DNA from: Antedon mediterranea
Lineage: Eukaryota; Animalia; Echinodermata
Length of the DNA: 64,000 nucleotides
NCBI RefSeq assembly: GCF_964355755.1
Contig: NC_092677.1
Location: forward strand, 26,337,175-26,401,174
Reading direction: 5' to 3'
The notes below the pieces were generated by a model that saw nothing but the letters and a program-made list of their open reading frames with translations, did not search any database and was not told the origin of the DNA. The position numbers and the translations under genes are program-made. Positions 15,232-64,000 of this stretch are shown here, in pieces; the first letter of the stretch is position 1; every line of letters begins with the position of its first letter.

Positions 15232-15594
15232 GTTTATTGTGGGACTGAAATCACTGTTGGTGACATAGCCGCTTTACACGGCAAAGAAGGCCTAGAAGCA
15301 GGATTTCTTGATAAGGCTAAGGAAATGGTTTCGACAAGACCACAGTGGATTTTCAAAAATGCAGAAATTGCTATTGCATCAAATCCATCATACGTACTAT
15401 ACGCTGGCGACAGGTCTAATAAATTTGGAATTTACTGTACTGAAGGAATCTACAAATGGTCTACACGGAATAGAAGTTTGCGGTTATGGCTGGATGACCA
15501 TATATGGACACCGGTGGTGGAAAATTACATAGCGCGTGTGATAACCTATATTACCGGCAGCAATATTATGGCCGCTATTGGATGGTGGTGGTGA
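15232..15594 (+). CDS. Family A copy A1 terminal exon: one divergent A-domain plus Trp-rich tail (VYCGTEITVGDI...IMAAIGWWW*). Upstream exon not located
   Basis: Acceptor ...AAACATAG|GTT at 15231. The frame is open to the stop at 15594 and is clearly paralogous to the exon at 40133-40507. Confidence 0.8.
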   Translation, partial: VYCGTEITVGDIAALHGKEGLEAGFLDKAKEMVSTRPQWIFKNAEIAIASNPSYVLYAGDRSNKFGIYCTEGIYKWSTRNRSLRLWLDDHIWTPVVENYIARVITYITGSNIMAAIGWWW

Positions 15595-17324
15595 TTAAAG
15601 AACCAAGGTCATTTCATGGTGATGCAGAATGGGTCATTATTTTAAGCTCTGTCTACACTTATGTGATGTGCCACTACCATTCATATCAATACCATATATG
15701 GACACATCACACTTTTTTTCACATAACGATTGATAGTGTAGACAAGGCTTTCGATTATTCCAAACTTCTATAGAATTTATTCGTAGATAGGTATTCGTTT
15801 TAACGATAATAGGCAGCCGTACAGGCTATACAAAACGAATATAGGTTTTAACATAATTATTTATCATCTTTAAAAAAAAAACATGCAATGTATTTATAAT
15901 TTTGGGATACATGTACATGATATATTGAAAACAATTGTCTAAAAAGTGCAAAGTTAATTTAACAAAAATTAGGATAAATAGCAAGTTGAAAGTTTTTGCC
16001 TAGGTCTAAAATACTTCTAGTCTAGTAGTAGTAGACCAAGGCCTAGCTATCCGGGTACAAAATGATCTGTGAAAGAATACACAATACGTCAATGCAAGTG
16101 TTGGTGTCTCTGTATCTAACTCTTTAGTTCCACAGACTCAACCTTAGCTGCTTTTACTTTTTGTGCGAATAAGGCCTTAATTAAAAAAAAAATGTCATGT
16201 TGGCGTTTTAAGCATCGCATCGCCGATGAACAATTTTGAACACATGCTAAGAATATGGAAAGAAACGATTAACACTACCGTCAAACAAAATATAACACTA
16301 TAGTAATTATAAAGCCTACATAAATCATCTTATAAATGTTTATTATAATTAGAGATGGCATCCCAACTATATATGTAAAAGAAGCTATCAACAGTTAAAA
16401 CTGCAATGATAATAATCATACTTCTGTACTTGTCTTAGGACATTTAAATTTAACCAACTGTGTATTATTATTATTGTTATTGTTATTATTCGTATAGGTT
16501 AAAATAATAAATGTACAATATATTATGTATTATGTTAAATAATTATGTATATCTACCTCTACCTATAGCGTCCATGCTCTCTTCATTTTTCACTTTAATT
16601 CGAAAATATGGAAATGAAATATGCTGTATTAATTTTGTTATAGTCATTGTTATTTAAAATGTTTATAAAATTGAAAAGCAATTAGATTATAGTTTTAGCA
16701 CCGTTTCAAACCCAGATAAAATGATAAACCATTAATAATTTCTATGGTAATATTGGAATAACATTAGCTGTACAGTTGAATAAACACAATATAGACGACT
16801 TGCATTGTAATGTGCTTCATTTAGAATGTAAAGTAAAGTACACAAACAACATACGGTAATTGTGATAGATTTGTTAATTATGTGTATCCAATATGTGATA
16901 TTTCCTGAAAGTCTTTATTTGCAATACTAAAATGCAACGTTGCAACATCCATTATAATGATTTCTGAATAAATTATGCAGTAAGGTGATACATTTATAAC
17001 AATCGCTCCACCATTCTTTTAAATAAAAACACGTTATCAATGTGAAGCAATGAACAAAATGACACAATGAATTGGTTTCTAAAGATTTTTCTTGACTTGA
17101 TGCTATGGTGAAAGAGCAAGGTCCGTTAGACAAATTATTAGGTCTAATCAACAACTATTTATAATTATTACAATTACTGACGTTTTAACATCTGTTTTCA
17201 AGGAATGTGGTTAATGACTCGTGTATTTCTTAGTTTACTAAATGTTTAAAGGATTATAAAAATGGACCTCAGAATTATAGTAAACATAATGCAACGATTT
17301 ATGTATATTTTGTATTGGGCCGGT

Positions 17325-20300
17325 TCAAGATATTATACATCTAGATGTATATCTTTCATGTATATGGAACTCTCCTTTCGAGTCAACATAACCTGTAACT
17401 TCTTTCAGGTGCTCCTTTTCTGATGAATGAAATGTGAAACGAAGAATCACTCTGATCATAGAGAGAAAGCTTGTAGTCAGGCAGCATTTGTATTTTACTT
17501 CATATATTTAGCCAAGTTTGATTTTTCACTTTTAAGTGATCAAGGACATCACAACGAACAACTTCCAACTTGTTGTCCAAATTCTAAACGCGTTTTTCAT
17601 TCGCTGGGGGCGCTTTTTCAAAATGGCCACTTATGCTATCAAATACTTATATCTCGGCAACCACTAATCGTAGAGACTTGGTTTTAATCTTAAAATGTTT
17701 GTAAGGTACATATTTCTATTTACTCTAATGGAATATTTTGACCAGAAATGACTGAAAATGCCATTTCTGACCGTTTGACCTTTGACCTTCTATCATCATA
17801 TCTCGGTAACTAATGGTCACACAGACTTGAAATTTGTTTCAAATTGTTCGCAGTATGCCTTTTTATATTTACTGTAATTAAATGTTTTGTTTTAAAGCAA
17901 ACAGAAATGCCATATCTGACCTCTTGCCCTAATGCATGTAATATCCACAACTGAGAGACTATAGATTTGTCTAGTATTGTTTATAACTTGTACCGGTACT
18001 TGTGGTTTTGTTGATAATATACCTTGTTCCAAAATCAATATTTCAAATCACCAATGGAACTGTTATAATAAATAAATACATACCATAAATATTGAATATA
18101 GTCAGATTACCCTCTCCAGTCAATAAAGTTCATCGATATCGTCTACTAGCTCTACATTCCAGTCCTTTGTATTCTCACATCCATCACCACACTCACATGC
18201 ATCAGTACAGAGCAAGTTGTTTTTCTTACAACTACAGCGATTTGTTGAACATGAACCACTGCAGGTACATCGACGAATTTCTAGAAGAGCTTCTGGTGCT
18301 GGTGGATTGTTGCAAAATACCGGCTTCAAGTGACCATCTTCTAGTTGCCAGGAGTAGTCAGTTGCTGGTGGAATAGATGGAGTTGGCTTGCATGATGAAT
18401 TCCATACAATAGACATGATGTATGCTCTTTCCACGTGTGGTCTAAGAGTTGCCATGGTTGGAGGTAATTGTTGTCCTTCCTTGCCTTTCTGTGCAAATAA
18501 CATCCATCTCAAGTCTGTGACATATTCTGCCTTGATCTTAGAAGTACTGTATAATATGCAAACATATCTTTCCATTTGCCTGAAAATCCAATTTGGTATT
18601 TCAGAGGTCAGTCCATATACAGCAAATGCATCTAGTATTTCATCGTCACATTTCATAAGTGCTTTGAAATGGGCAGACACTCCTTTTCCAGCAAATGTAC
18701 CTGTGTTATCTGTACCTTTAAATGCGTACCATCCAATCACTGTTGCTGATATTTGTTTTCAAAGTCGGTAATAGCATTGCCATATAGGTATTTTTTCCCC
18801 TCTTTTCCTACAAAATGTGGTCATTGGAGGAAGTAGAGGATAGCTTCCTGTTAAAAGGATAAAGACATCAGTATCTACAGAAAGTATGTCAACATTGGCA
18901 CTTGGGTCTTTGTTCATACAATCAAAGGCATACAATAAGACCAGTTGGTCCCCTTCTTCCAATGTGTGTTGTCCGTGTGTCATCTCTGGCATCATGATAA
19001 CTTCTGAGAGATTGCAGTTTGCCATCATGGACGTGTGATGTGTTACTAGGACCTTCTTCGTGTTGTTCTTGAAGTGATTAGGTATCTTCTCTGACAGATA
19101 AGTTCAGCTTTTGTCTCTTTGTGCGATAAAAATGTCTTAATGTTCTTAATCTCAGTGTTGTCATTGACATGGTAGTGAATGGTAGTTGTTTTCTGTTTTC
19201 TCTTATCTCGTGTAGATTCTTTTAAAGATCCTGATAGATATTGATCAAATAAAAGACGAACTTCATCATATGGTTTGCTCATACCAAACAAATTCAGATG
19301 CAAAGTCAGAAGCATTGAACTTATCAGACACCTTCTTTACCATATTGACGACACACATTCCATCAAAAATTAGGATTGATGCTGCTTTTTATCATCTTTC
19401 TGTACAGGCCTGCTGACATTATCTGGTAGAGGGAGTTCTGTTATTGACTGCAATACCATTCTTCCATCTGGATGGAAATTTGATGGTGGAGTGCTATTGA
19501 ACTCATAGTTGTTGCCTATGACATCCTTTAGAGCGAACTCTGGCCTGCTCTTCGCCACAACTAACAATCTAGACAGCATCTTTCTCTCTTGCTTAATTGA
19601 AACTAGTTGACCTTTAATTTGGTTTTCACCACTGCTCCTACATCCTTTAAATAAGAGAAGTTGTTTTTCTTTTGAGGGTCCCAAAAAACGGTTTTTTCAA
19701 TCATTCGTGAAGTCACAAATTTATCCAATGCTTCTTTTCCTAATTGGTCTCGCTTTTCAATCGTTTGACTAACATCATCGGAGGTTACCATGCCAGGCAC
19801 TGAGTTGGCTTGTCACTGAGTTCCACGGGGATCTCACCAGGCTAGCATTGTTTGCTAGGTGTTAGCGACAAGGCCTAGGCTGGAACTATAGTGTATAACT
19901 ATTTAACTAAGGCCTCTCTGTACAACATTTATATCAGCATAGGTACATTATTATACAAGTAAATGTATATGTACTAATAATAAGTAGGATTTCCCAGCAA
20001 ACACGGTTTAAATCGGTTTAAAAAACACTTATCATTTAAACTCATGAAATCTAATCTGCTTGAACTTTCAGCCAATCACAGGCTAGGATTATGTATGGAG
20101 ATAATGAGTGGCTTTTATTTATTTTAAAACTTTAATTTCCAAGCTTAAGTGAATGTTTTAAAGCATCAATAATTGAAAAATCAATAATGTGTTACAAATA
20201 TGGATGTTCTGAGCAATCTGTCGAAAAATGTTATCTGTAACCAACATGTTGTGGATATCACACAGGTTATGGTCAAAGGTCAGATATGGTTTTTCCGGCC

Positions 20301-21375
20301 ATCTTGAAACAAACCTTTCCATTAAAGCAAATAGAAACATATATTTTCTGAAAAATTTGGGATAAATATCAACTCTTTCTGACCAGTAGTTATTGAGATA
20401 TGATAAGATCAGGTCAAAGGTCAAATTGTCAGAAATAGTATTTCCGCTCATTTTAGGGCAAAATGTTCCATTATAGTGAATAGAATTATGTACCTTACGA
20501 ACATTTTAAGACTAAAACCAAGTCTCTACGATTAGTGGTTGCCGAGATATAAGTACTTGATAGCATAGACGGCCATTTTGAAAAAGCGCCCCCAGCGAAT
20601 GAAAAACGCGTTTAGAATTTGGACAACAAGTTGGAAGTTGTTTCTTGTGATGTCCTTGATCACTAAAAAGTGAAAAATCAAACTTGGCTAAATATATGAA
20701 GTAAAGTTAATATAGTGACAAATGCTGCCTGACTATTGGTGTCAGTGTAACTTGTTACTTTATCAGTCTCTAACTTTGTCATGAACGCTTGTAGTAGTCT
20801 TCGTAGTCCAGCCTGTTCTTTCGTTTGTTCAGCGCCCTCATTTCCACAAAGTTTGAGTATGATATTTGCAAGTGTACGTTTGTTTATTTCATCGACGCAA
20901 AACTGAAAGATTACAATAATAATTAAACTGATGAAAACAATTAGTAGTAGTTATGAATCATTTCAATGACTGTGACGTCACAGAAAGTCTTAGCCACATG
21001 CATCTATAATATTCATCTCGGATTGATTAAATCCAGAAAATAAAATGTTCGTTGATAAAATAATTGTCACGGAGTAATATAAAATTACTTTATATCTCAC
21101 TTTTGATTAATATAGACCTTTTCCAAAAGTTTTAAGTATAAAATTAAGGAACAAGAAATCGACTGATTAGTCTATTTAAGTTTATTTCAAAATAAACACT
21201 CTTTAAACTCCTGGCTGCTCTCCAGTGAAAAGAATTATCAAGACGTACAAATGATATTTATTTTATTTATTCACATAATATACCTACCATGACTTCTTCG
21301 CGGTGTTTATCATTCAGGTGAACCATTACAGCAAACTTCTTCGCACAGCTGCTATTAAATGTAAATTGTCCCCCA
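17325..21375 (-). pseudogene. Family B copy B1, disrupted: last exon (20902-20736 plus 17473-17325) split by an Academ insertion and frameshifted, exon 3 truncated (21288-~21375)
   Basis: Near-identical to B3 (43967-44730), including the intron, and ends ...HERYTSRCIIS*. There is one extra nucleotide near 17435 relative to B3. Confidence 0.88.
17474..20735 (-). mobile_element. Academ (AcademX-type) DNA transposon, internally deleted
   Basis: Termini 5'-TAGTCAGGCAGCATTTG...CAAATGCTGCCTGACTA-3', with inverted repeats of several hundred bp and a 3-bp TSD TTG (17471-3, 20736-8). Coding remnant 18120-19800 has XPG/PIN-like motifs (EEGDQ, DTDVFILL, AFKGTDNT..FAGKG) and a C-terminal Cys8 finger (CTCSGSCSTNRCSCKKNNLLCTDACEC). 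Confidence 0.88.
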
Positions 21376-23325
21376 TAATAATTTATCGTGCTTATAAACT
21401 AAGTCTCATTTGAGAGAGTTGAAAGAGTCGTGAGTTACAACCCTGGCATTAGGTCAGGATTGAACCACGGAATTTGGCACGTTAACCACCAAGCTACAGC
21501 TCCACTACATTATGCCAATCCACAGTAGGGCACTGCAGTTTGAGAGATTAATATGGTAAAAATCAATTTTGAAACTGTTGCTTTTTTTGTCAATATCATT
21601 TTTTCATTAAATTCAAAACCATAAAATTACTAACTATTCAACTATTGTTGTAAAGTTCAATTTCCTAATCAAATGAATTGATAATAAACATAAAATGATA
21701 CTTTATATCTGATGACGCATATGCGTCTTTTGTAGTGTGCCATTTGAAACATATTTATATTTAATATTTATTAACTCCTAACAAAAAAACATTCATAATC
21801 CAATAATGAAAGGGAGGTTAATGCTTGCAGAAAGCATAATAAATGGCTATAATGTTTTATGGTCGCTAACTAATGTGGTATACCCATTTTATTACTGTTA
21901 TTCGATATCATGAATATTGACAACTTCTTTTTTAAAGTATTCTTTTGAAATTCTAACAATTGTAATTTCTTTAAACCCATAAAAGTCGGTAGTTGCCAAA
22001 TAGCCTACTAATTGCAACAGCGAATTTCAGTTCACACATTTTAAAAATTGATATTCCTTTATAAATATTTCCTGACAGTCTTTATTTACAATGCTAAAAT
22101 ATAACGTTACAAAATCTATTAAATTATTTCTGAATGGATTATGCAAGAAGGAGAAAAACAAAATAAAAAAAACATTGACGCTTTATGCATCTTTTGTATT
22201 ACAACAAAATCAGTGACTAAATGAATTTTAAATCAATCCACTACAAAATACAATAAGGAAAATACACACAGAATGGAGGAAAAAACTGTTGACGTTATCT
22301 GAAAACCAATTAAAGACTGATTATAATTATATGAGAAAATCTACACTTGGGTCAACTGTTTTTCTTTCAATTGAGGAGAACGAATATGTTTAGAGGGTTT
22401 TCAAAAAGTGTTTTTTTTTTCCTTCAACTAAAAGACCCTGTTCCTTCCAATTGCCTATTGTATTTGCCTAGTAGGGACACTTTCTCTTTGTGTAAACATA
22501 GATGAACAAGACTTTAGATCTACAATGCAAAAGATAAAGACAATAGGTAGAGTAAGACATTATTATTATATTGTAATACAATATTAGACGTGACTAGTTT
22601 GGTTACTCTTCAATGGTGAAGATTTTCCCCGCGAAGGTTGCATCAGTACTACTATTATAATGATTACTTTGTGTTAAGTTTATTGTTTTCGTACGCCAGA
22701 GTACCACTGTAATTTTTCGAATAAAGTTTATAAATATTATAGCCATAACTTAATAGGCCTACATAAAAGCTTAATGTGGTTGAATAAATTGTTGCAAAAA
22801 ATAGCCTGAGTTAATACAGGTATAGTGATTGTGTCCAACGTTGACAATCCCTAATACGATGATAAAGTGCTGTAAGCACTAAAAAGTGGAATTAAAACAA
22901 TGTTTCATTAAATGATTTAGAAATAAAAAATGGTATCAAAGTATTCTTTTCGATACTTAACTATGAAATTAAAATGCATTTACATACTTTGATTTCGAAT
23001 TAGGAAATTTAAAGTAAACAAAGTACTGTATGTACTGTAAAGTAATGCTAATTAAATACTGGACGTTATGTAAATTGAACAGGCTACATAATAGTGCACC
23101 ACAATCGCCAATGTAAAATTGATTTGATTTATCTGTACCGATAAGATGGTGAAATTAGATAGTATCTCTCTTATCTAATTGGTACCGATTTATTTAGCAC
23201 CTTTCGGGGTCCCTCCGGTTTAGACGCAGCAGGGGTACCCGGCAGACTCTCATTTTCATTGACTTCAAGTGACCCCCAACACACTTAAATAGTCAGATAT
23301 TGGTACCTAGCTCATCTAACTAAAT

Positions 23326-23583
23326 GTACATGAAATTGATTGTGGAACCGAGGTTACACTTGGAGATGTTGATAGTTTAGAAATAAACGATGATGATAAC
23401 TATTTGATAGATGGTACTAGAAAACTGATCTGCAAGACACCAACGTGGGTTCTTAAAGATGCAGACATTGAAATAGCATCTGATCCACCATACTCATTGT
23501 GTGCAGGGAACAGAGATAATAAATTTAAAGTGTAAAGAGGGGAAGATGGGTGAATTAAGATAATAAAGAAGGCGATACCGAAG
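23326..23583 (+). pseudogene. Family A copy A2: orphan domain exon (counterpart of domain 3) with two in-frame stops
   Basis: Reads VHEIDCGTEVTLGDV...YSLCAGNRDNKFKV*RGEDG*IKIIKKAIPK|GTACGT. The acceptor is lost by fusion to sequence homologous to 32140-32314. Confidence 0.9.
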
Positions 23584-23909
23584 GTACGTAAATCAGGTGT
23601 TTTATTTATTTTTTTAGCAGGTTTATGTTTTTATAGCAGGGTAGCATGTAAACTAAAAACGTCTATCGTCTATTAACTGTAAAGGTATGAAAATGAATGG
23701 TTCAATAATACACTGTTTTTTTAATCAAGACACCTTCCCTGCGTTTTTTAGATCTAATTTAAGATCACAAACTATATTTAATGTAAAAATAATACTATAT
23801 GGTTCTATTGCGATAACTTTTTTCGTCTTTAAATGGTTAAAAATGTGAAAAATAAGTCGATTCTAATATTTATAGCGGCCCCGCTATAAATGCTAAAATG
23901 CATTTCGCG

Positions 23910-25359: not shown

Positions 25360-26042
25360 ACAAATTTAATGGGTCACGAAATGTACGTTAATGTTATTAT
25401 TTATTTAAATAGATATCCTACTAAGTAGTAGTACACAAAGTACTGTATTATTAATTATTAATTTCATCAACTTCAAAATGCACTATGGTGAAAATAAACA
25501 TTTAATATCAGGGGCGGTCGCATGAATATTTTAATGGGGTTGCCTAAAGAGTAGGCCCACAGAGCGGTAGACAGTAGTATTTGAGCCACAGTCCCCATGG
25601 TAATACACGAACAATAGAAATGTCTACATTCAACTGCAAACACAATGTAAAAAAATATCCAAAAAATATGTGTGAATGATTAAGCTAATGGGACGAAGTT
25701 GAAAACTAGATACAATATTTAGGTTGCCACCAGCGACAGACCTCATATCCGACGCACATATTTTACTCACTGTTTCAACAAACGCAAAGATTGTAACATT
25801 TAAACACTTAGCTTAGTATAATTGAACAAAAAGTCTAATTATTACAAATGGATCAAATATATCATACACATTTATCTCTGATTGGATATGATCATACATC
25901 ATGATACTACTTGACTGTCATTCAGTCAAGATATAAAAAATGGTTTTAGAACACAATTTTTGATTTCATCGCCGTAGGTTTTCATAGTGTAGTCAACAAG
26001 TTGTCACAGTGTCTTCAAACACACCTAAATCACATCTAAACA

Positions 26043-26202
26043 CAGCCAACCTGGTGTATACTGTATCCCATGTGAATGTGGAAAGGTATACATTGTGGAA
26101 ACTGGACGCGACCTTCAAACCAGGCTCAAAGAACATCAAGGCCATGCCAGAAGAGGAGAGCAAGACAAATCATCAATAGTTATGCATTCTCACAAACACG
26201 GG
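26043..26202 (+). mobile_element. Penelope-like element GIY-YIG endonuclease fragment (duplicate at ~49653-49810)
   Basis: Translates as PGVYCIPCECGKVYIVETGRDLQTRLKEHQ...KSSIVMHSHKHG. Confidence 0.85.
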
Positions 26203-26430
26203 GAAAGCTAAAATTAGCTGAAAAATAGGGTGGAATTACAGGGTTACCATATCTTGAAAACTAATAAGGGCGCTGCTTCAAACTAGTAAAGCTAATCCTA
26301 GCAACAACTAACATGTCGCTGCCAGATGGTGTTGATAACTAATCGAAACGTCGCACACGTACGTACTACTTTTGGTTTCACATAAAGGTATTGTATACAT
26401 ATATATCCTTTAATTATATTTCGAAAATTT

Positions 26431-29293
26431 TCAGAAAATTGTACATTGAATAGAGGGTTTCTTTTCAGGTATGTGAAATTCTCCCTTCGAGTCAACATAA
26501 CCTGTAACTTCTTTCGGGTTGTCTTTGTTTCCAGCTAATATATAAAATGCTGAATCACTCTGACCATAAAGAGACAGCTTGACGTCAGTGAAACTGGTTA
26601 CTTTATCAGCCTCCAACTTGGTCATGAACGCTTGTAGTAGTCTTCGTAGTCCAGCCTGTTCTTTTGTTTGTTCAGCGCCCTCATTTCCACAAAGTTTGAG
26701 TATGATATTTGCCAGTGTACGTTTGTTTATCTCATCCACTAGAAACTGTAAAAATTATGTAAATGTTTACTGATACAATGAATACCTCACTAAGCAGTAC
26801 ATTTTTAAGTTGAGAAATTCTGTATAATCATTATCCAGACTATTTGGAATGTACCCTATCTAGGGTTACCAGTATATGAAATGGTCATTTTACAAGTTCA
26901 ACGGGTAAATTAATTGGTTTATATTGTGTTGGTTTTCACTTTGTACCAGTGGCACTAGTAATGCCAACACTGTTCTAAGTGGGTGCTAAGTTACTATGCT
27001 TCCCAGTCAAAATAGACTGCTACTGCCAGAAGGGTGTAACAATAATATATACGAAAGACCTACCAATACTTCTTCATTCTTTTGAACCATTATAGTGATC
27101 TTGACACGATTGCTTTTGAATGTAACTTGTTCTCCATTTAACCCACAAAATATTAGCTTTATATCTGAAAACCCCTTTTGTCGAAACGAACTTGTGAACT
27201 TTTTCCAGTATGATAGAAGATTTGTCCATTCTTCAGAAGGACTGTCACATGGGTCAACCAACGCATCAAAAACACGAGACATACATGTGTGACTTTCTTC
27301 GTCGGCGAAAGTGGAACAATTTGGAAGATCTACAATCAACTATAAAAACATAATTTATGTCAAATGTATGTAAGAAAGAGGACGTATAAATGTTTTGGAA
27401 ACAATTAGGGCAGATCAATAAAAAGTAACATTAGTTATTCTGGTTAACTAAAACAAATAAAAATTAATGGGCCTAAAAACAATTATTATCTTATTATAAA
27501 CAAAAATGATTTTATTACATTAGTTGTTACTCTTTCTTTGCATGGTATCTTTACCATCAGCGTGTACTCGGCAACAGTTGCTTCACAGAAACTGGTACTC
27601 CATCGAATCGTACCAACGCTCGTCTGTACATTTTTTGTTTCCAGAAAATCTGCGCATTTGTTTGCAAATTGACGTTTTGTTTGGATTGTTTTGTCGTTCT
27701 TTCGATAGTTTATTTGTTTAAATAAACTACTATGAACATTTTTAAGTTGTCTTATACTGAATTCACTCTCGTTGGATTTCTGTAGAAAAGACATAATGAA
27801 GTGTTTACCTAGTACTCGACTACTGTAATCCTGAACATGTTCTAAACCATAAACTTAATTTTTATTCAAACCTCGTCTCTGGCGCACATCACGCTTAGAT
27901 CACACCGGTGTAGGCCTATTATTTTCTGATCTAACAGTGCAAATTGTGTTCGGTGGCAGATGGGAGAATCACTACCAAAAAGGGACAAATTGCCTTCGAA
28001 CTTTTCTAGACCAGAAATCGATCATGGTAGGAACCGTTTTCAAGATAAGTTATTACTATAGCAGGGTATATATTACCAACAACATTTTGCTACTTTGAAA
28101 GAAAAAAGAACTACATTTTGAATTTTCTTTTAGAACATGCATATCAACACACAGATAAAAAATGTTTGCCATGAAGCAATGAAGTTTAAACAAAACCGAA
28201 AAACCCCACAAAATAAACGGTAAACAAGCCAATTTGACTATGTTTTGCTTTATATTACAGTTTGTTAGGTAGGCCTAAATATCTACTTTTTTGTATCAAA
28301 GTGAGTAATAACTATTATATGACATTAAAATGGCATATTTAACAAAATATTTGAAACAACATTTTTTTAGGACAATATCTTTAAACAAAACCCAACATTA
28401 TGGCCTATAAACTAATAAATAGGCTATGACTGTATCGTTTATTGTATTCGTTGATGTCAACTGTTATAAGTAAATGAAAACAAGTCAGTGAATCAGTTTA
28501 TTCAACGTCTATATTTTTTTAATGATATTTCTCTTCTGGATGAATAAAAAAAATGAAATTAAATGATTATTATTAAAGATTACTACAATTTTATAATAAT
28601 AATGAATTTAAAGCGTCCGTTAATACTATTTAAATGCCTATACCATTATCAGATAATCTTCCACCTTATAAGCTGAAGTATTAATTCAACTGTGGACCTT
28701 GCTCTTTCACCGTGTTAAGAAAACAACATCAGAGCTGGCGACGCAATAATGATTAATGAATCAATGGTGGCAATCACATTGGACTTTAATCCAAATATAG
28801 TAGGCCACACTGTCCATACAAAAATGTTTACAATTAATTGAGTAAATTTGTAACGCAGGCCTATTATCTCATAACTGTATATTTTTGCCGTTGTGACAAT
28901 ACAGTTTTATCGTATCGTATTGTATATTATTTTTAATTTATTTTGCAGGGTACAATATATCTTTAATTAATAATCTTCTGTAATTATAGAAACTGAACAG
29001 CATATGTAACCTAAACCTTTGTCAGTTGGCCTAGATTGGCATACGACTGGGCAAAAAAAACACCCGTTATGATAACGATTCTTACTGAAATCTAAGTATT
29101 CAAACATTCTACCATCAACCATACATAACAATACCTTTCTTTATGATATTAATAATGTAACCTACAATTAAAAACAAAAATATTGATATCGATATAAACT
29201 GATAACAATTAAATAGCGTAAACAATTTACCGTCTTGTCAGCAACTAATTCGGTCTTGTGTCCAAAAAAACGCTGTTTAAGATTACTTGCCAT
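26431..29293 (-). CDS. Family B copy B2, ~304 aa, CaaX (CTIF). Exons 29293-29231, 27779-27519, 27339-27064, 26745-26431
   Basis: All introns are GT..AG and phase 0 (exons of 63, 261, 276 and 315 nt). Reads MASNLKQRFFGHKTELVADKT|KSNESEF...TTN|LIVDLP...EEVL|FLVDEIN...SIQCTIF*. The structure is conserved in B3 and B4. Confidence 0.82.
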
Positions 29294-29464
29294 GATCACA
29301 GAGTAGCTGACCTGGAGTGAAGCTTAGGCCTACTTGCTGCGAAAAAATAACCAGTTATTATGTGAATAAATTAACCCCAATTTCTTGGCAGCAGAAACAC
29401 GAAAAATTGTCTGTAACCCGGTAAATAACAGCCTGAAAATAACGGTTAAACCACCTAATTGATT

Positions 29465-30135
29465 CGGTGAGAACGCCATTTAACCGACCGGAAATTTTGT
29501 CTAATGGGCATTTGGACGACAGGACATTTCGCCGACAGACAATGGCCGACAGAAAATTATCCGACAGGACAAAATGCAAATTTCGCACCTTACTCGGTTC
29601 ATTCTTTATTTCGTACAGTATCACTACACTCATGTTTACAATAACCATGTGTCTATGATGATTTTAATATACCGTAGTTGCGAATGCTCTCTAAATTTTA
29701 CCATAAAAATTAAAACAATTTATTGACACTTTTTAAAATATTGTTTCCTGCCCTCAAACTTATTTTATTTTGGTAACAACCATTATTGAAACCAATTAAT
29801 TTAGCGATTTTGTCATGGTGGGCATAAGAATATGTTGGGTTTTTCATTTCGAATTGCTTTTATACTCTATTATATTTTTTTTAAAAAACACGCCAACCAC
29901 CAGGTGTTCTTCATAAGAACTTATAGCACGTAAAATATTTATAAAACAAAATACGAAATGAATGCCTATTACAAACCTCAAACTATGTTAAATTCACCGT
30001 ACTACTGAACTGCACGTCTCGTTTTCATGTCATACGGATTGTGTCGGCTGTCGGCAAAATGTCCTGTCGGTCAAATGATTGTCGGCCAAATCTTCTGTCG
30101 GTGAAATGTCTTGTCGGCAAAATGTCCTGTGTATT
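29465..30135. mobile_element. MITE-like element with inverted arrays of ~15-bp repeats (CCGACAGGACATTT.. / ..AAATGTCCTGTCGG). Duplicate at ~52785-53455
   Basis: Direct repeats at 29485-29575 and their reverse complement at 30040-30130. Confidence 0.75.
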
Positions 30136-32342: not shown

Positions 32343-32387
32343 CTCCTGAGGACGATCAAAGCGCAGCATATTGATCGAAGCGTCGAG
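32343..32387 (+). ncRNA. Degenerate Penelope-type hammerhead ribozyme (duplicate at 55662-55706)
   Basis: CTC-CTGAGGA-C-GATCAA..TTGATC-GAAG-CG-TC-GAG. The core GAAA has become GAAG. Confidence 0.55.
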
Positions 32388-48660: not shown

Positions 48661-50045
48661 AAACAAAAAATGCTGTCTGTCAGATTACTCAAACTCAAAT
48701 GTTACAGTAGGTGGAGGTATGCAACCTATTGTTTTGGTACCGAAACAAATTTAATGGGTCACGAAATGTACGTTAATGTTATTATTTATTTAAATAGATA
48801 TCCTACTAAGTAGTAGTACACAAAGTACTGTATTATATTTTTCTGCTCAAAAAAAAAAATCAGTAATTTTTGTAAATTTTAGTTTTTCACATATTGTTTC
48901 TAATATACAGAAAAATGTAGAATATTAACGGAAAACAATATAATTAAAGAAAGAACATATGAAGACAGATATTACTGATTTATTTGTAATGTATTTAATT
49001 ATGATATGAAAGAATAGAGGTGGTGGTTCACGCCACAAAAGAGAAAAAAAAGTACTGTATTATTAATTATTAATTTCATCAACTTCAAAATGCACTATGG
49101 TGAAAATAAACATTTAATATCAGGGGCGGTCGCATGAATATTTTAATGGGGTTGCCTAAAGAGTAGGCCTACAGAGCGGTAGACAGTAGTATTTGAGCCA
49201 CAGTCCCCATGGTAATACACGAACAATAGAAATGTCTACATTCAACTGCAAACACAATGTAACAAACCAAAAAATATGTGTGAATGATTAAGCTAACGGG
49301 ACGAAGTTGAAAACTAGATACAATATTTAGGTTGCCACCAGCGACAGACCTCATATCCGACGCACATATTTTACTCACTGTTTCAACAAACGCAAAGATT
49401 GTAACATTTAAACACTTAGCTTAGTATAATTGAACAAAAAGTCTAATTATTACAAATGGATCAAATATATCATACACATTTATCTCTGATTGGATATGAT
49501 CATATATCATGATACTACTTGACTGTCATTCAGTCAAGATATAAAAAATGGTTTTAGAACACAATTTTTGATTTCATCGCTGTAGGTTTTCACAGTGTAG
49601 TCAACAAGTTGTCACAGTGTCTTCAAACACACCTAAATCACATCTAAACACAGCCAACCTGGTGTATACTGTATCCCATGTGAATGTGGAAAGGTATACA
49701 TTGTGGAAACTGGACGCGACCTTCAAACCAGGCTCAAAGAACATCAAGGCCATGCCAGAAGAGGAGAGCAAGACAAATCATCAATAGTTATGCATTCTCA
49801 CAAACACGGGGAAAGCTAAAATTAGCTTAAATGCGCATTTTAGGGTGGAATTACAGGGTTACCATATCTTGAAAACTAATAGGGGCGCTGCTTCAAACTA
49901 GTAAAGCTAATCCTAGCAACAACTAACATGTCGCTGCCAGATGGTGTTGATAACAAATCGAAACGTCGCACACGCACGTACTACTTTTGGTTTCACGTAA
50001 AGGTATTGTATACATATATATCCTTTAATTATATTTCGAAAATTT

Positions 50046-52612: not shown

Positions 52613-55600
52613 GATCACAGAGTAGCTAACCTGGATTGAAGCTTAGGCCTACTTGCTGCGAAAAAATAACCAGTTATTATGTGAATAAATTAACCCCAAT
52701 TTCTTGGCAGCAGAAACACGAAAAATTGTCTGTAACCCGGTAAATAACAGCCTGAAAATAACGGTTAAACCACCTGATTGATTCGGTGAGAACGCCATTT
52801 AACCGACCGGAAATTTGGTCTACTGGACATTTGGACGACAGGACATTTCGCCGACAGACAATGGCCGACAGAAAATTATCCGACAGGACAAAATGCAAAT
52901 TTCGCACCTTACTCGGTTCATTCTTTATTTCGTACAGTATCACTACACTCATGTTTACAATAACCATGTGTCTATGATGATTTTAATATACCGTAGTTGC
53001 GAATGCTCTCTAAATTTTACCATAAAAATTAAAACAATTTATTGACACTTTTTAAAATATTGTTTCCTGCCCTCAAACTTATTTTATTTTGGTAACAACC
53101 ATTATTGAAACCAATTAATTTAGCGATTTTGTCATGGTGGGCATAAGAATATGTTGAGTTTTTCATTTCGAATTGCTTTTATACTCTATTATATTTTTTT
53201 AAAAAAACACGCCAACCACCAGGTGTTCTTCATAAGAACTTATAGCACGTAAAATATTTATAAAACAAAATACGAAATGAATGCCTATTAAAAACCTCAA
53301 ACTATGTTAAATTCACCGTACTACTGAACTGCACGTCTCGTTTTCATGTCATACGGATTGTGTCGGCTGTCGGCAAAATGTCCTGTCGGTCAAATGATTG
53401 TCGGCCAAATCTTCTGTCGGTGAAATGTCTTGTCGGCAAAATTTCCTGTGTATTACGTGTATTAGTAGAGTTGTTCTTGGTATATCCAGATATATATGGT
53501 TCGTCTAACAATCCCCAAAAGGATGCCTACAAATCTGAAAAATATTTAATGGCGCCATTTAGGCAACGCCCGTTATGTCGTATCGAGAGATCTTCTGATT
53601 TATTGGTTCCTGATTGGTTATTTTTAATCACATGACTAATATTCAACGTTTTCTTGACGCACACATCACCGAAATCAATGTACCAAAGAACTCTATATTA
53701 TACCAAGCAACAACTCTGCTAATACAAGTAAGTAACTTGGCGTAGACTGTCATACATTTAACAAGTTTTTCTAGTCTTATATGATATGTTTTGATTTGTA
53801 AACACTTTTAAATACATTCGACTAGCGTAGGATAAAGGCCCATAATAGGCCCTATTTAATAGGCCACCAGGCAGAGAAGTACCTTTGCGATATTTTCGGC
53901 CAGAGACGTTTCGTAGGTACGGTCGGGTATGTGTTTTTTGCAATGTCATATACATTCGTGTGTCTTAATAAACAAACTAGATTTGAACTCGTCACTACGG
54001 ACGAGTTAGGTTATCCGCAGCGCAAATGCCACTGCACGTCATACGTTAGAATATTGCGCAAAGAAAAACGATTATGCCATTGAAACAATTTCAGTGTGCT
54101 CTCTATTTTGTTTCACGTCTAAGTATATACAGTACTATATACTGTATACGTACTACAGACAGTGCAGAATAAATGAAAATAAGTGACCAAAGTTATTGAC
54201 GCTTTTGCACATGATGACGTCTAAAATGGTGAATCATGCGAAACCTAGACAATATAAAAAAATGGAGGGCAATGGAATACGGATAAGTGGAGATGCGCTC
54301 TATTAAATGTGACGAGCTATGATGAAAGAGACAAAAATCCTATATTTTATATTCGAGTGGCCATACGATGACGTCACAATGTCCAGTTAGCCATATTGAT
54401 GCATGATTCGATATTTACAGCTCATCTACTTTCAGAATATGTAATTTAAAAAAAGTTCACCACATAGTTTATAATCTATGACTGTTTAAAGAAAGGCATA
54501 ATTTTCACAAATTGTTGAACTTTTTCATAAAAAACGCACGGAAATTGTTCAATTCTACGTGCTCGTATGACGTGATTTTAAGTCGAAATTGTTTGAAAGT
54601 TGGTAAAATTACTAGAAAAGGCTGAAAAAACAAAAATCACGCAAAAATATATGTTTTTTCGCTACATGCGCACGCGCGCGTAAACAATTGGAATGCTCAA
54701 AATTTTCGAAATGCTCAAAATGACATGAAACGCGTATGAAATTGATTAGAAGTTGATTTTTCGCATTCTGAAATTTTAAACGCGCGTGCGCGCGTAATTT
54801 TCGTTAACATTTTTAATCCATAAAAAGTTTCCCCTTTATATGACTTAAATTTTTACCAAGTGTCAATACAAAATGACTTTTGGTTTTCAATCTATGATCA
54901 ATCATTGAAATTCATAAAATCGCGCGTAACTTACGCTGCGCAACTCGAACGGGACCGAAAACCTTATTACGTCATCTTCAGATAGAGGTCAATCTTATGA
55001 CAAAGTTATACATCTTATGTTGTCCAGAATTAGAGATATGCGTGCAACAAAATTCGTGGAAAGAAAGAAGAATATAGAAAAAAAAAATATTACGTACAGA
55101 TAGTCTGTAATAGGTCATTTAGTATTGCTTACAATGTGCTAAATCATATTACATTGGTTGCTGGTGGTATCTACAATATCTAAGCTGGGCTAGTTGGGGG
55201 AAGGGGGGTCTCTAGTCAAACTATAGGGTGTCTGGCACTTGCGGTGCAGCAGACAATTAGTCTGTTGTTATCCATTTAGTATTGTATGAACACAACTTGT
55301 TCATTTGGCATTAATTTTGAGTGCATCTATGCTAACCCCTTTTTAGGCCCTCCCTGGGGGGGGGGGGGGTCTGGCGTGCCCTTTGCAGCAGAGAAAAAGT
55401 CTGTCGTTTGTGATACTGGTATAAGGATGTCAATGGGCATCCCATGGTGGTAAAATTAGGTGGTATCTCTCTCATCTAACCGGGGTCGATTTTTTAGCAC
55501 GTTTCGGGGTCCCCCCGGTCTAGACGCAGCAGGCCTGGGGGTACCCGGCAGACTCGCATTTTTATTGACTTAAAGTGACCTCCAACACACTTAAATAGTC

Positions 55601-55904
55601 AGATATTGGTACCTAGCTCATCTAACCAAATGTCTCTGGGCTGCCTGTCTATATATTCTCACTCCTGAGGACGATCAAAGCGCAGCATATTGATCGAAGC
55701 GTCGAGAAACTCAACAGTTCTTTTCAGAAATAACATACGTGGTGTACCGCAAACTTATATTAACACTACCTATATGCTTCTCTCCTCCTAAGCTTGATCG
55801 AATGTTCTGAGTTCGGAAATTGAGAATACGATTTTCTACGTTTGGTTATAAATGAAACCGTATGGTTGGTTGATGTTCTGCATTTAATATAACCTAAACT
55901 CAAC

Positions 55905-58900
55905 ATGCCAAAGGTAAACTTAATATCATAATTATTTTATCTAACATTGTTATTGTCAAGCTTATTACAGGCCATGTTAACTTCGTTTATTTTCTAAAAT
56001 CAATGAAAATTTCATCTACTTTAAATTGTATATTATAATTACATATTTAAAATATAAATCCAATATTCTTAATAAAAGTTAATGTGGATTTCGAAAACAT
56101 TATTAAAAAACAACATCTACTGTTCTAGAACATAATATAACAAATTATTTTTAAAAAGTATATTTATATATATATATATTTATATAAATCCAAAGGCAAA
56201 TTACTGAAAAAAATGACAATGCTGTGGGTATCAGTGGCTGGATCTCAATGGAGATACAAAAATAAAAAGCGAAAAGCTAAATCAAAACGATAAAGTAAAG
56301 TAAACAGCCAGAAAAGTTAGCAGAGCTTTCGGGCAACACTAGCCCTTCATCAGTGCAAGTGAAGGAATTGGGATAACGTCATAGTATAAAGCTGGCAAGT
56401 GCTGCCTGGGTGGACAGGAATAAAAGAAATATAACAAAGGGAGCCAGGGTGGAGTCTGAATAAGAGTAGAAAACAAAGAAGATATATTTATATATATATA
56501 TATATTTATATATTTAATTTGAAACGATAAAGATGAGGAAATCTGTGAGAATGAGAAAAAGTCGCCCCAACCGAGACTCGAACTCGGTCCGCCTGCTTGA
56601 TATGCAGATGTCCTAACCATTAGACCACTGGGGCTTTCATGGTATTGTTCGAACTCGATTGGTTAACGACTCTTTAACATTCTCGGCGTGGTACGGCGGA
56701 ACAGCACTAGTCCTCAGTTGTACGCACGCGCAACAGAGATCAAATTGATACGCCCTCATCTTTCAGCGGTTTAGAATTAGTGTTCTTTGCCTATTGTGTT
56801 TATATATTTATATATTTATATATATTTATATATATTACATAGCCTATGTAAATACGCGAACGTGATTGGTTGAAACTGCATCACATGACTACCGCTGCGA
56901 GGATCGTAAATCGTATATATCCTCGAGAACGATGATATTGACTGTGTAATTTTCGCGTAATAATCGTGTCCCCTGTCATTAATCATATAAATTCTCGAGT
57001 ACGATGATATTGACTGTGTAATTTTCGTGTGCAACACTCGAGTTTGCCGATAAATAAACAAAAGTCATCTACTCGATCTTGAACTCGGGTGGAATTGTCA
57101 CTCCATCGCAAGACAACGTTTCATCCGCTGGGCCACGGAATTTGCTTGAAGAAATTAATCTTCTAAACTATTTAAGCTATGCATACATAGCGCCCTCATT
57201 TGTTATAAGTCCACCCTAAATGTGATGAAACACCGTTTGTGATTGGTCAATACTCACGGTAGTAACCTAGTAACTAGTACGCGCTGAACATCCGGTGATT
57301 CGGCTCCTCGAAGATCGAGAGAAGACGAATTGTTTATTCGGCCTACCTGATTATAATATTATTATTAATAGGCTTATTGATGGAAATTCTTCTGTTAATT
57401 TAAACGACCTAGGCCTAAGTGAATATTTTATTGCCAAGGAATCATCAATTAGTAATTATCTGTATATTATTCTTCGCAAGGTAAGGTGTCTAGGCAGGCT
57501 TGTTTTAAATACAATACAAATACTATAGGAGGCCTAGCCTAGGCCTAGCCTAGCTTCACCCAACCCAGCAGACTTGTTCTTGGCTATATAATATAACAGA
57601 TATTGCCTTTTATATCGGTTAAATATAAGATTTGACATCCCCTCGGGAATGATATTAAGTTCTCGGGGAATATATATTTCCCTCAGCTGGCGCTTCGGGA
57701 AATATATATTCCCTCGAACTTAATATCATTCCCTCGGGGATGTCAAATCTTATATTTAACCTCTAAGCAGTCAATATCTGTATAATATTTATTGACTTAT
57801 ATTCAAAGCCTTTTCGATGTCATTAACCATACAATTTAATAAATAAACTGAATGCTTATGGAATAACAGGTACTCTTTAAATTAGGCTTTTGACCATCTT
57901 GACAGAAAACAAAATATCCCTTTGCAGACTTAACTCAAAGCCTCTAAGCATTGGGTTATTATTTCTAATTTATATTTATTACGCCGACTACAACTACATT
58001 ATTTCTCTTCAATCCTATATTAATACTCTATTTTAATACTTTTATTATTAAAAAAATAAGGAATTAAAAAAAAACTTTATTTCAAATAAATTACTTGCAA
58101 ACATTAAAAAAACAAATAGAAAAAAAAACTGAAAATGATGATCATAAATTATTATTTATATTTTTAAGAAATTGTAGTAACGAAAACGATATAAGCCTAT
58201 TGTCCCACTAAAAATATTTTCAAACATTTTCTGTTGAATATGCCATTATGCATATTTGAAAATAAAATTTATTTCCTGACAAAATTTTAATAAAACTTAA
58301 TAATTAAAAATTTTAATTAAAAAGCAAAAAAATTACCTAAACAATGGTTTTTGGTTAACATTAACCGTTTCTTTTGCCTTTTTATAAGTAGGCCTAGAGT
58401 AATTATTTTTTGGGTTTTTATTTCCTACAGAATTTTATAATTTGATTAAAACTGCAAAATAATAACCAACATTATTTATCAAGAAAACTATTATAATCTT
58501 ATAGGAATTATCAACAAAATGAAACATTCCTACACAATGTCACTTATAACATATTTACAATATGGCAATATCATGGGCTGCTGACTATCCATATCCAAGC
58601 TTAATAATTTTACAAAAAGAACACTTACCATTTTAAAGAAAGAGGAAAAGTGTTAATAGCGACTATTGTCAACACGTAATACGGCTATTTACGTTCGACT
58701 ATAGTTGTTTTTTCATTGCTTAGCCTTAATTATTTATGTTCAATTATTATTACATGATTATTAGGCTAGTGTAATACAATCCATAATTGATGTTTATATT
58801 ACATTGTGTTAACACAGATTGATTGTGGGAGTGAGATTACGCTTGACGATGTTCACAAGTTAAAATCTAAAATAAATGATACAGATTTTCTTAATGCTAC

Positions 58901-61900
58901 TAACATACTTATTTGCGAGACACCACAGTGGGTTCTTAGAAATGCAGAGATTCATATAGCTTTTGATCCACCATACTCATTGTGCGCAGGGAACATGGAT
59001 AATAAATTGTCATTGTATAGATGTAAAGATGGATCAATTAAGACAAACAGCACAGGAAACAAGGTAATCAGGGGTTTTGTTTTAATTACAACTTTAAAGT
59101 GTACAAGATAAAATCATACAGTAGGCCTCCTTTACTTATACCATAACGATGCACAATGTTTAATGTAGGCAGTTGACTGTGGAAGTGAGATTACACTTCA
59201 ACATCTTCAAAGTTTAAAATCCGCTACACATATTGAGGATAAAGATTTGTTTGCTGCTACCAGAAGACTGATCTGCGAGACACCAACGTCGGTTCTTAAG
59301 AATGCAAAAATTGAAATACCGACTGATGATTCAACATACTCACTGTATGCAGGGAAGAAGACTCATGAATTTGTAGTGTTTAGAGAAGAAGATGGGTCAA
59401 TTAAAACTAAAAAGAAGGCAATAAACAAAGTAATAAGATGTTTGGCTTTATTTACCGGAATGACATATAATCTTACTATTGGTGGTCACGACTTAAAGTT
59501 GTCCGCAACTTATTTTGACCTCCATCTGCACATTTTTGATGTTTTTATGTTTTATTGTAATTTTTAAGTTATGTTTCTATCTTTTTTGCAATTTGTAATT
59601 TTTATCTTTTATTTTAAAATGTGTGGATAAACCAATAAAACAAACAAACAAACTATTTTATTATACTACAATAACCGATGTACGGTACTTAAAGAGTATT
59701 GTTTTAACACAGGTACAGGAAATTCATTGTGGAACCGAGATTACACTTGGAGATGTTCAAAGTTTATACTTGGAAACAAATGATACTAATGAGGGTTTTA
59801 TTCGAGTTACACAAAAACTGGTCTTCAAAGCACCAGCGTGGATTCGTAAAGATGCAAACATTGAACTAGCATCTGATCCACCATACTCATTGTATGCAGG
59901 GAACAAGGCTCATACATTTAAAGTGTATAGAGGGGAAGATGGGTCAATTAAGATAATGAAGAAGGCGATACCGAAGGTACGTAATCAGGTCTTTTGCTAT
60001 ATATATTTATATATTTATTGCCTTTCCGCTGAAAAGTCTGCCGATATTTCCGCTTGGGCTGCTCCGTAAATCTCTTTTACCAGTTTCTTCCAGTCTGATC
60101 TTTCATTGGCTAGTTCTTTAAGTTGTTTCATGTCTTTCTTAGTTTTCAATTGTCCGGGATACTTAATGTCTGTGTTATGCTTATAAAGGATGAGTAGGGC
60201 GTTGCTGAGAGTTATTGGTAGGGTGGGTCTCGGTCTTCCTCGAAATTTTATATTGGTAGTGTTGCTGAAATAATAGCTTATTGCTGTGTCGGCTGGTGTA
60301 CATGGGTCTTGTCTAAGTATGTGACCCAATAGTCTCCATCTTGCGTCGACTATTTCTAATGAAATCGGTTTTGTTCCTGTCCTTCTGTATAAATTTATGT
60401 TCGATATCCTGTCTGGGAACCTGATACCTATGATTTTACGAGTCCCCATGTTTCAGAGTTGTAGAGTAATATACTTTTAACAAGTGAGTTGTACAGCTTG
60501 ATACGTATTTTTAATTTGATTTTTCGAAGCCACATCGAGTTTAGTTTGGTCATTGCTACACGCGCTAGTTGTGTTCTTCTAATTATGTCTTGTCTGTCCC
60601 CAAGGAGCGATCCTACTTTTTTCGTGTTTCTCCATTGTTCTTGTATGTCCTCTTTTTCTCGTCTTACAATAGTGTGTTCTGTTTTTTCTTTATTTACATT
60701 TAAGTTGAAAGTTGATAGATGGCGTTCAAATTCGTTTACATTATGCTTGCTGTTTAGACTCTACATCATCAGCATATGATATCTCTTGATGTATTTCTGG
60801 ATAATTGTTCTGATTCCTCGTAGCGCAGACTCAAGGTAAACAGTGAATAAGACCGGGCTTAAGCTATCTCCTTGAGGGGTGCCGATGTTGGTTTGGAATA
60901 TTGGCTGTTCTTTTGCCCCTTTTATTTTTAGATTTAGTCCGGTTTCACTCAGCAGAAATCTAACGATCCTAAGTTCATCTTCGTCTATAATTGAGTATGT
61001 CGAGGAGTTTGTTTCTATCCACGGTGTCAAACGCGCTTGACATATCTATACCGGTTATGTAAATATTTATTTTGTTCTTTTTGTGCTTTAGCTATAAGCC
61101 ATCTATGTGTAAAAACAATATTACTTGTGCTTCTGCCTTTGCGAAACCCACTTTGGCTTTGTGGTAAGAATGCGTCTACTTTCGATGTAATTCTATCCAG
61201 TGTTATAAGCGATAGGCACTTGCGTATGGTGTTAAGTAGAATAACAGGTCGTAAATTCTTAGTTGGACCCTTTTCCTTACCCGGTTTTGGTAGTGCTATG
61301 AGTGTTCCTTTATTAATATCCACGAATTCATGTTTTGTAAATATTTGATTTAAAATGTCTGAAATCATTGGAGCTAGAACAGCGGAACCGTATTTTAGTA
61401 GTTCTCCTGGGATACCATCCTCACCTGCTGCTCGACTGTTGTTTAGGCGTTTAAGATTCTTGGTTACTTCCTCTTCACTGATTTCACTATGTGAGTCCCG
61501 ATGGGAGTGGATTTTATATTGGTAGGAAATGGGTTCCGAGTATACACAAAGTATGGAAATGTTCCGAAAGAATATCGGTATTACAACTAACCACGAAAGA
61601 AAGTTAATAACTTTGATCAACGTTTATGCGCCGAATACATACATAGCAAACACGAAACCAGACGAAATAAACAAACTATATACCGACCTAGAAGGCCTTC
61701 TCAAGCGATACGGTAACAAAACATTACTTATTTTGCGGTGATTTTAATTCTTCGGTAGGAAAAAAACGGGATGACGAGAGGTGTATGGGATCATTTTCTA
61801 GAGGAAAACGAAACAAAAATGGACAAACACTCATAGATTTCTGTGAAAAACACAATTTATTCATAAATAAAAGCGCGTTTCAGCATTCAGCACGTCATAT

Positions 61901-64000
61901 AACTACATGGTCCCAACAGAGAAGAAATTCCAAAGGAGAACTGATCAAACTGTACACTCAAATAGACTATAATGTTATATGTAAAAGTAGATACAAGACT
62001 CTCCTAAAGAACGCTAGGTCATACAACGGAACACTTTTAGATAGTGATCACAGAATAGTAATCACAATATTCAACTTAAAATGGCATCGCGTCAACAAAC
62101 AAAACACTAACAAAAACATTAACTTATTTGCATGTGAAAAGCTAGTGACAAGCGAAGAAACTAGGAATTTATACGTAGAAAAACTGAAAGAATGCATAGA
62201 TGTTGTTGTGAAACCGGATCAGCCAGCCGTTACATGGCAGAAATTGAAAAGCGTCGTGAAGGCAGCTGCAAAACATACAATAGGACCAAAACAAAAGGTC
62301 GGCTACAACAAAAGGACATACGACGACACTTGAACTCAACGCCTATCAACGCACCAAAAAGAACTTAGACAACAAAAAGCTAACTGCAAGTCGGAAATCG
62401 AACGTACATCATTAGTCTAGTGGGCTCCAGACGTTGTTTTTTCTTAATATTAGTAAAAATATAAATATTTTTGCACATATGGCGTTTCATACGTGTATTA
62501 CTTGAGTTTGGATACTCCGCCTGGGGAAACACGCACAAGTCACGTGGTTTGACACCAAGAATTCGTGGTGCATACGATTATCCGGTTGACTAGTTTCAGC
62601 TGCATGCGATTGGCTACTCACTCGTACACCGTTTTAATATTCATGTTTCAGAATTTCAAAGACTCAACAACTAAGAAGGTACGCATGCGCTATGTTACGT
62701 TTAGAAAATGTGTACTTGGGAACATTAATGAAAGTTTCTGAAGGCTAGAAATGATTTTATATTACCGTATGCCTAGTAGTAGTCTGGTAAACATTTGATG
62801 GGATTTTTCCCATGAAAACTCGTCTTGCTTCTCCGCAAATCAAACATTGAATGGATCATTTAATATTACGCGGAGATAATTTGATTTAATTCCCACCCAG
62901 ACCCTGTCCTGTTCTGTGTAGTGGTGTAGCCCTGTCTGCCTGCCGGTGGTGGTATGTAGGCCTACCTTATTGGCGCGCGTTTTATTTGGCAGGTCATACG
63001 TGCGAATTGAGTAGGACCTACGAAGGAGGCCTAGGCTAAGGACTAAACAATTAATAAACAAAACAACTTGGCAACACGATTTCATATTTCAACAGTCTCG
63101 ATCGTACATTCAGCACTGTACGTACTCGATCTTTTTCATTTTGAAACAAAATGATTATTGGTTGATTCGAAATCCATATTTACATACCGTCCGCCCCATA
63201 TAGCCAAATACGGTATGATAACCTACGTCATTTATCGGATGTTTGCGGTCTGCAAATCGATTTCTATACGTGTTTCACAAGTCTGTATTTTCAGACAAAA
63301 ATCGCAGTCGAAATAAAAACAAATAAATAAAAATAAAAAACAATACAGACTTGGGGCAAGCTTAGTACATCATTAAAGCAAAAAAGAAACAAAATCATGC
63401 ATGATATTAAAAAAAAAAGTAATTGAAACACGCAACAACAAAGAACTTGATCAGAAAAGTTTGGATATCGACAAAGCGATAAGGGGCGCCCAAATGTTTA
63501 AAGCAGTGAAAGATCTTAATAGAAAACCATTCGAAAATCCAAAAGTGTTTGATGCTAACAAAAAGTTTATTGCCTCACCAAATGGAATAGCGAAAGTAAT
63601 TGGCAATCACTTCGAAAACAAATTTTACGACGGAAGCAAACGAAATATAGATTCATTTTAGGGAAATCCTAGGCCATTAAATAAAGAAATCAGTGAAGAG
63701 GAAGTAACCAAGTGTCTTTTGCTATATTTGACTTTAAAGTATTGGAATTTATAACATAGATTTAAATTTGTATCCGTGTTTGTCGACAGGACCACAATGT
63801 AAAACAGGTATATTTCTACTTGATTGTGTATAATCCTGTATAAATATGTTGTTAAATAAAAAATAAATAAATAAAAAACATAAAACACACATTATTTGTA
63901 TATACTATACTAACATAATGACGCAAATTGTTTTAATTCAGAAAGTTAATTGTGGAAGTGAGATTACACTTAAAGATGTTCAAGATTTACAATTTGAAAC
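55905..64000 (+). CDS. Family A copy A5 (duplicate of A3, runs off the window). Exons 55905-55913, 58818-59063, 59169-59429, 59713-59976, 63942->
   Basis: Same splice signals and frames as A3. Confidence 0.83.
56563..56634 (-). tRNA. Duplicate tRNA-Asp(ATC)-like sequence
   Basis: Same cloverleaf as 33242-33313, with one variable-loop change. Confidence 0.65.

Follow-up and report, generated by a model that had tools for sequence, protein, structure and literature searches.

Head-to-head pairs of A and B genes, likely deep paralogues, in an array of the crinoid Antedon mediterranea

Described gene pairs and the crinoid array

Plants offer familiar examples of immune genes paired on a shared promoter, and one nematode family is known to have them too. 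The plant paired NLRs RRS1/RPS4, RGA4/RGA5, and Pik-1/Pik-2 are described in PMC9528088 as head-to-head genes whose separation runs from a few hundred bases to a few thousand. For C. elegans, PMC6347328 places pals-22 and pals-25 on the same strand of one operon, with 19.4% identity between them, and PALS proteins are reported to bind each other and to be located on mitochondria (PMC12937023). Here we describe an array of two kinds of small genes, A and B, in a 64,000-nt stretch of Antedon mediterranea DNA (NC_092677.1, 26,337,175 to 26,401,174), which is called the window and supplies all coordinates. Every B gene in it is divergent to the A gene that follows, A-B linkage recurs in a second crinoid genus, and A and B are likely deep paralogues from one undescribed alpha/beta domain of ~85 amino acids, as judged from sequence comparison.

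As in the paired NLRs, the partners are head-to-head, probable paralogues with start codons 592 to 3293 bp apart, and one partner is more variable. The A and B proteins differ from NLRs in being small, in having membrane-directed tails, and in lacking NB-ARC/NACHT, LRR, TIR, or CC domains (no Pfam match to NB-ARC/NACHT or LRR was obtained in window exons or full-length relatives); any co-dependence of the two partners is putative. The initial annotation of the locus also invoked the pals genes. That analogy holds for the linkage of very diverged paralogues belonging to a lineage-expanded family of unknown biochemistry, and it fails in that the pals-22/pals-25 genes are confined to a single species and, according to PMC6347328, share an operon, whereas A and B are divergent on opposite strands and persist in two crinoid genera. 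Above the cut-off, Pfam returned nothing at all, the ALS2CR12 (pals) signature included, in a library not checked for containing that signature. MAVS-type CARD adaptors carry a C-terminal membrane anchor, and a Branchiostoma relative (P0015) resembles them in its N-terminal CARD and hydrophobic C-terminal tail, whereas the crinoid A and B proteins have no CARD and the middle domain showed no relationship in the tests made. With CaaX-prenylated proteins, B proteins share a C-terminal Cys-a-a-X.

Order, exons, and fate of the gene pairs

Translated searches placed A-type exons on the plus strand (15232, 23326, 34547-40507, 47323, and 58818-64000); the minus strand carries the B-type exons (11890, 17328-21377, 26431-27779, 43967-45734, and 50046-51394). 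The annotated alternation A1(+) B1(-) A2(+) B2(-) A3(+) B3(-) A4(+) B4(-) A5(+) and the divergence of every B from the following A (B1/A2, B2/A3, B3/A4, and B4/A5) were thus borne out. An additional B remnant, B0, lies head-to-head with A1 outside the range first annotated and raises the earlier count by one, so that all five B/A neighbors in the window are divergent (tblastn and hidden Markov model [HMM] scan). The genes are as follows.

11890-12249, minus strand: B0, broken remnant with a candidate first exon (12249-12226) and a stop-bearing portion of domain exon 1; the rest was not found
15232-15594, plus strand: A1, open terminal exon with one A domain and a predicted amphipathic tail ending AAIGWWW
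17328-21377, minus strand: B1, B3-like pseudogene with its last exon split by a transposon; exons 1 and 2 and part of exon 3 were not found
23326-23603, plus strand: A2, one A-domain exon that has two in-frame stops and lacks a good acceptor; its nearest match is A3 repeat 3
26431-29293, minus strand: B2, intact, 304 amino acids, three domain-sized units, ending CTIF; exons 29293-29231, 27779-27519, 27339-27064, and 26745-26431
32586-40507, plus strand: A3, intact, 471 amino acids, tail ending AIQWW; micro-exon MPK (32586-32594), then five phase-0 domain exons (34547-34792, 34898-35158, 35442-35705, 39632-39892, and 40133-40507)
43967-46424, minus strand: B3, intact, 319 amino acids, ending CIIS; exons 46424-46368, 45734-45474, 44978-44649, and 44278-43967
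47016-47580, plus strand: A4, micro-exon MPKE (47016-47027) followed by a single domain exon (47323-47580), 89 amino acids
50046-52612, minus strand: B4, intact near-copy of B2, 304 amino acids, ending CTIF
55905-64000, plus strand: A5, near-copy of A3 with the micro-exon, three domain exons, and the start of the fourth, open to the window end

GT-AG ends and phase 0 hold for all exon models, with one domain per exon. Short first exons were identified for B0, B2, B3, B4, A3, A4, and A5, those of the B genes being predictions picked from sequence and likeness to relatives; the A micro-exon and 70 bases upstream of it recur ahead of A3, A4, and A5. The first exons of A1, A2, and B1 were not found in a strict scan, which was of low sensitivity because it also missed the likely first exon of B3. 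Start codons are 592 bp apart in B3/A4 and 3293 bp apart in both B2/A3 and B4/A5. The A5 model matches a stored A. mediterranea "uncharacterized protein" over the first 231 of its 233 residues.

Predicted introns of both kinds were found joined in contigs from public runs: 44649-44978 adjoins 43997-44273 in a B contig (run X10, record 14), and the A intron between 35158 and 35442 is joined in contigs of runs X8, X10, X5, and X6. The joined introns suggest an RNA origin for these runs, which are not on record as RNA. The contigs diverge by ~3 to 18% from the window copies and therefore confirm the exon structure for paralogues or a related species only. No listed run containing 26400-36000 is recorded as RNA, and A3 exons 2 to 4 have no continuous coverage in four runs, a result that is neutral on A3 expression.

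The C-terminal CaaX motif read in the B genes (CTIF in B2 and B4; CIIS in B3 and the B1 remnant) is kept in all six intact B proteins, including the three relatives found (P0039, P0040, and P0041, all ending CIIS), one of which, P0039, is a further B paralogue; B proteins are presumably prenylated. The "WW tail" ascribed to A genes is Trp rich in A1 and A3 and contains no WW domain; across relatives the A tail is predicted to form an amphipathic helix with a hydrophobic end, cationic in many A proteins, and its hydrophobic moment is 0.38 to 0.67 in 13 of 16 tails (best-window values without a control).

The proposal that the pair is the duplicated unit applies to one case. Since 25437-39690 recurs at 49049-64000, B4/A5 is a repeat of B2/A3, and four pairs in the window are partly independent. 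B1 resembles B3 (88 to 92% identity) while A2 groups not with A4 but with A3 repeat 3 (support, 96/93), indicating that recombination also mixed partners. The annotated states of the pairs were recovered, in that a transposon insertion disrupts B1 and stops disrupt A2, B2/A3 is intact, and B4/A5 is intact up to the window end. Joint death of partners is not the rule, as the intact B3 stands beside a frame-broken, tailless A4 and the last exon of A1 is open beside the dead B0. A4 leaves its frame at an A8 run and tail-like sequence goes on in another frame; the break is a true frameshift or a homopolymer error. Features other than the genes are listed below.

17474-20740: DNA transposon remnant in the last exon of B1, terminal inverted repeats 83% identical over 488 bp
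35732-39417: degraded long interspersed nuclear element (LINE) within A3 intron 4; target-site duplication, 14 bp
46425-47015: B3-A4 intergenic stretch between the start codons, candidate shared promoter
49049-64000: segmental copy of 25437-39690 (~14 to 15 kb, 97.7 to 98.6% identity), carrying B4/A5

The window is AT-rich animal DNA (GC, 24 to 38%) with abundant LINE and transposon remnants. In the B1 transposon, a broken frame has a cysteine-rich, CXC-like stretch (Pfam TCR, E 0.28) at its end. LINE pieces of both orientations occupy the A intron at 35732-39417 and, as a copy, near 60000-63700; since the stored model P0001 stops just before the LINE, the insertion may disturb A3/A5 splicing. 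A plus-strand LINE frame (7505-10447; 980 uninterrupted codons with endonuclease and reverse-transcriptase domains) is a young insertion adjoining the truncated B0. The segment 23951-25360 is a 91% copy of the B3 downstream flank (42336-43749) that has no B gene body, probably left behind when a B3-type copy was deleted. At 33060-33420 and 56339-56700 lies a very high-copy element with a tRNA-like head and extremely deep coverage in all public runs compared, which we take to be like a short interspersed nuclear element. A tandem repeat of ~63 bp (1199-2823) yields spurious repetitive frames.

A probable common domain and its relatives

A and B had been taken for two families. A profile of 42 A domains, however, matched B unit 3 in hhalign with a probability of 82.2 (E 1e-5; score 30.4 over 81 columns), as against scores of at most 18.9 for 40 column shuffles, 9.3 for the reversed unit, and at most 17.2 for 30 unrelated protein windows; all five single B unit-3 sequences scored 22.1 to 27.1. 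In a six-frame scan of the window with the A profile, the only non-A matches were three weak ones, to the last exons of B2, B3, and B4. B consists of three exon-sized units, each with the predicted helix-helix-strands succession seen in A, and the A domain is predicted to fold into two helices and four strands. In the tree, B unit 3 has a long branch and is not part of the crinoid A clade (99/97); together with the unit-3 match, this makes A and B likely old paralogues rather than unrelated families. When the profiles were first compared, from window sequences only, the match fell short of significance (probability, 2.8).

Pfam assigned the domain to no family, whether in 19 alignment members, 14 relatives, 36 search hits, or 14 window stretches. 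With Foldseek, neither PDB nor viral models gave anything at E <= 0.001, sequence searches of PDB gave no credible match, and the ESM Atlas held no usable feature match for P0011 or for residues 135 to 377 of P0015, its structural matches all being below a template modeling score of 0.5. No relative was found in the phage records and metagenome contigs searched. Inspection discarded 21 of the 36 search hits, comprising 20 short matches to Ig-, FN3-, or cadherin-type repeats and one low-complexity protein (P0013). The accessions of this family matched no paper in a full-text literature search whose scope excluded subscription journals and supplements.

The A domain occurs in crinoids, acorn worms, and amphioxus, in one to five copies in the window and 3 to 10 in acorn worms. 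In Anneissia, both B genes found share a scaffold with an A gene, as read at the scaffold level: LOC117113139 (XP_033112280) and the A gene LOC117113140 (XP_033112281), with consecutive gene and protein numbers, on a scaffold of 1,206,221 bp, and LOC117111706 and the A gene LOC117111682 on one of 1,624,706 bp. As A-bearing scaffolds make up 0.6% of the assembly, whose size is given as 590 Mb in a passage of PMC9367165, the chance of this double linkage is ~4e-5. The Antedon and Anneissia B proteins are, however, only 45 to 48% identical. The expectation that A and B stay linked in relatives thus holds for both Anneissia B genes and not for three of the five A genes, whose scaffolds yielded no B in the search made. 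Branchiostoma floridae P0015 combines an N-terminal CARD, two A domains, and an amphipathic tail ending FAIGWL, the tail type of A1. In Ptychodera, P0024, P0046, and P0047, all on one contig of 50,616,078 bp, carry arrays of 6 to 10 A domains; this is a separate acorn-worm expansion on one chromosome, and the searches made showed no CaaX partner.

Readings of the paired arrangement

In comparisons of ~80 codons per pair, made without transition correction, the ratio of nonsynonymous to synonymous substitution rates (dN/dS) was 0.68 to 1.51 in all ten pairs of A3 repeats and 0.45 in B2/B3 (last exon, 0.33) at similar dS; A1 compared with other A genes gave 0.39 to 0.57. All five A3 repeat frames are open, as neutral drift rarely allows (148, 28, and 3 of 5000 neutral point-mutation runs at three branch lengths). 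The two Anneissia B proteins are 77% identical and their linked A proteins 25%; A is the variable partner. Its fast evolution fits a pathogen-facing role and also relaxed constraint.

Building on the observed order, exons, and linkage, we infer tentatively, with a real but less than even chance of being right, that the A and B products are co-expressed and act together at the inner face of the membrane, most likely in cell-intrinsic immunity. One shared promoter would co-express them; B would be prenylated and A anchored by its tail, and both would lie at that face and meet through their common domain. Fast-changing A would meet a variable ligand, e.g., a pathogen protein, its tail or a fused CARD would give the output, and conserved B would restrain or relay A, while recombination in the array would create and destroy copies. 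Of the coupled birth-and-death module proposed in the initial annotation, what stands draws on the Anneissia linkage, the 592-bp spacing of B3/A4, the fast, open-frame A genes, and the amphioxus CARD relative; strict co-loss does not stand, and one superfamily is likely.

Several points weigh against a coupled module at the membrane. Each step beyond the anatomy is conjectural, including A-B contact, co-expression, membrane location, and the defense role, and the spliced contigs come from paralogues or another species rather than from the window's own copies. The Anneissia pairs are linked by scaffold alone, with orientation and distance unread, and the members of one are 24 LOC numbers apart; the three unaccompanied A genes (P0002, P0003, and P0006) lie on two scaffolds where a word-based search found no B. 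The trees show no one-to-one co-duplication, as the Anneissia B proteins are sisters (100/100) and their linked A proteins are not, and losses are not always joint (B3 with tailless A4; open A1 exon beside dead B0). Of the B units, only unit 3 shows firm homology to A (probability for unit 2, 4 to 6; unit 1, none), and the signal comes from non-crinoid members (probability, 59; crinoid-only profile, 0.7). The B structure model is poor (predicted local distance difference test score, 42), CARD fusion is seen in 1 of 15 true relatives, and a dN/dS near 1 is also consistent with relaxed constraint on redundant repeats.

In a second reading, an old inverted duplication left paralogues on one bidirectional promoter, linked through that promoter while their proteins act separately. 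The probable paralogy of A and B, the short B3/A4 intergenic stretch, the losses that are not joint, the Anneissia A genes on scaffolds with no B found, the incongruent A and B trees, and the recent copying of one pair in five all agree with this account, which we nevertheless consider somewhat unlikely, as the A and B C-termini are both membrane directed, in different ways that are kept across genera, and the rate asymmetry suggests distinct roles. A selfish toxin-antidote element, with A a membrane-damaging toxin and B its antidote, would explain the tight linkage, the cationic amphipathic tails, the death of both B1 and A2, and the permitted survival of B3 with a disabled A4. We give it very little probability, because the open A1 exon beside dead B0 (where A1 expression and a trans-acting B could matter) and the Anneissia A genes with no nearby B do not conform, because B is conserved while linked A proteins fall to 25%, unlike lock-and-key co-evolution, and because the A domain is of ancient origin, being present in crinoids, acorn worms, and amphioxus.

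An assembly artefact in which B4/A5 is the second haplotype of B2/A3 would alter the pair count and not the pairing; the identity of the copies and their indel differences are within the reach of alleles, given allele-level divergence in echinoderms. It also receives little probability, since the window has no N gap, distinct B3/A4 sequence separates the copies, and the B0 to B3 pairs and the Anneissia linkage are independent of B4/A5. It is improbable, though less so, that the domain is distantly related to REDD1/RTP801_C and that the genes encode membrane stress or growth-signaling adaptors of the mTORC1 or NF-kB type rather than pathogen-facing receptors. In none of the 19 alignment members is RTP801_C listed with an E of 10 or less (weak matches are removed by HMMER filters), the domain profile finds no PDB sequence, and REDD1 is absent from the 50 matches listed in an uninformative fold search with the poor B model. 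REDD1/DDIT4 differs in having one domain after a dispensable N terminus and no tandem repeats, CaaX motif, or amphipathic tail; A and B are not filed under REDD1.

Returning to the coupled module, a wider version of it would make the family a deuterostome immune superfamily of remote REDD1-fold relatives: NLR-free head-to-head pairs in which a positively selected, repeat-expanding sensor/executor with a membrane-active tail is checked by a prenylated paralogue and is wired through a CARD in amphioxus. We regard this version as unlikely as it stands. What is new here is one undescribed domain superfamily, linkage in a second genus, and the CARD fusion, weakened by the recent copying of one pair, the non-joint losses, and the conjectural function. 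The CARD fusion of P0015 offers a direct handle on function, and since the proteins are small and have clear ends, the claims can be tested cheaply. Should the REDD1 likeness hold, a long-isolated human fold would gain a family of relatives; if the coupled module is true, deuterostome paired genes made from a domain absent from Pfam would be a new building block of invertebrate innate immunity.
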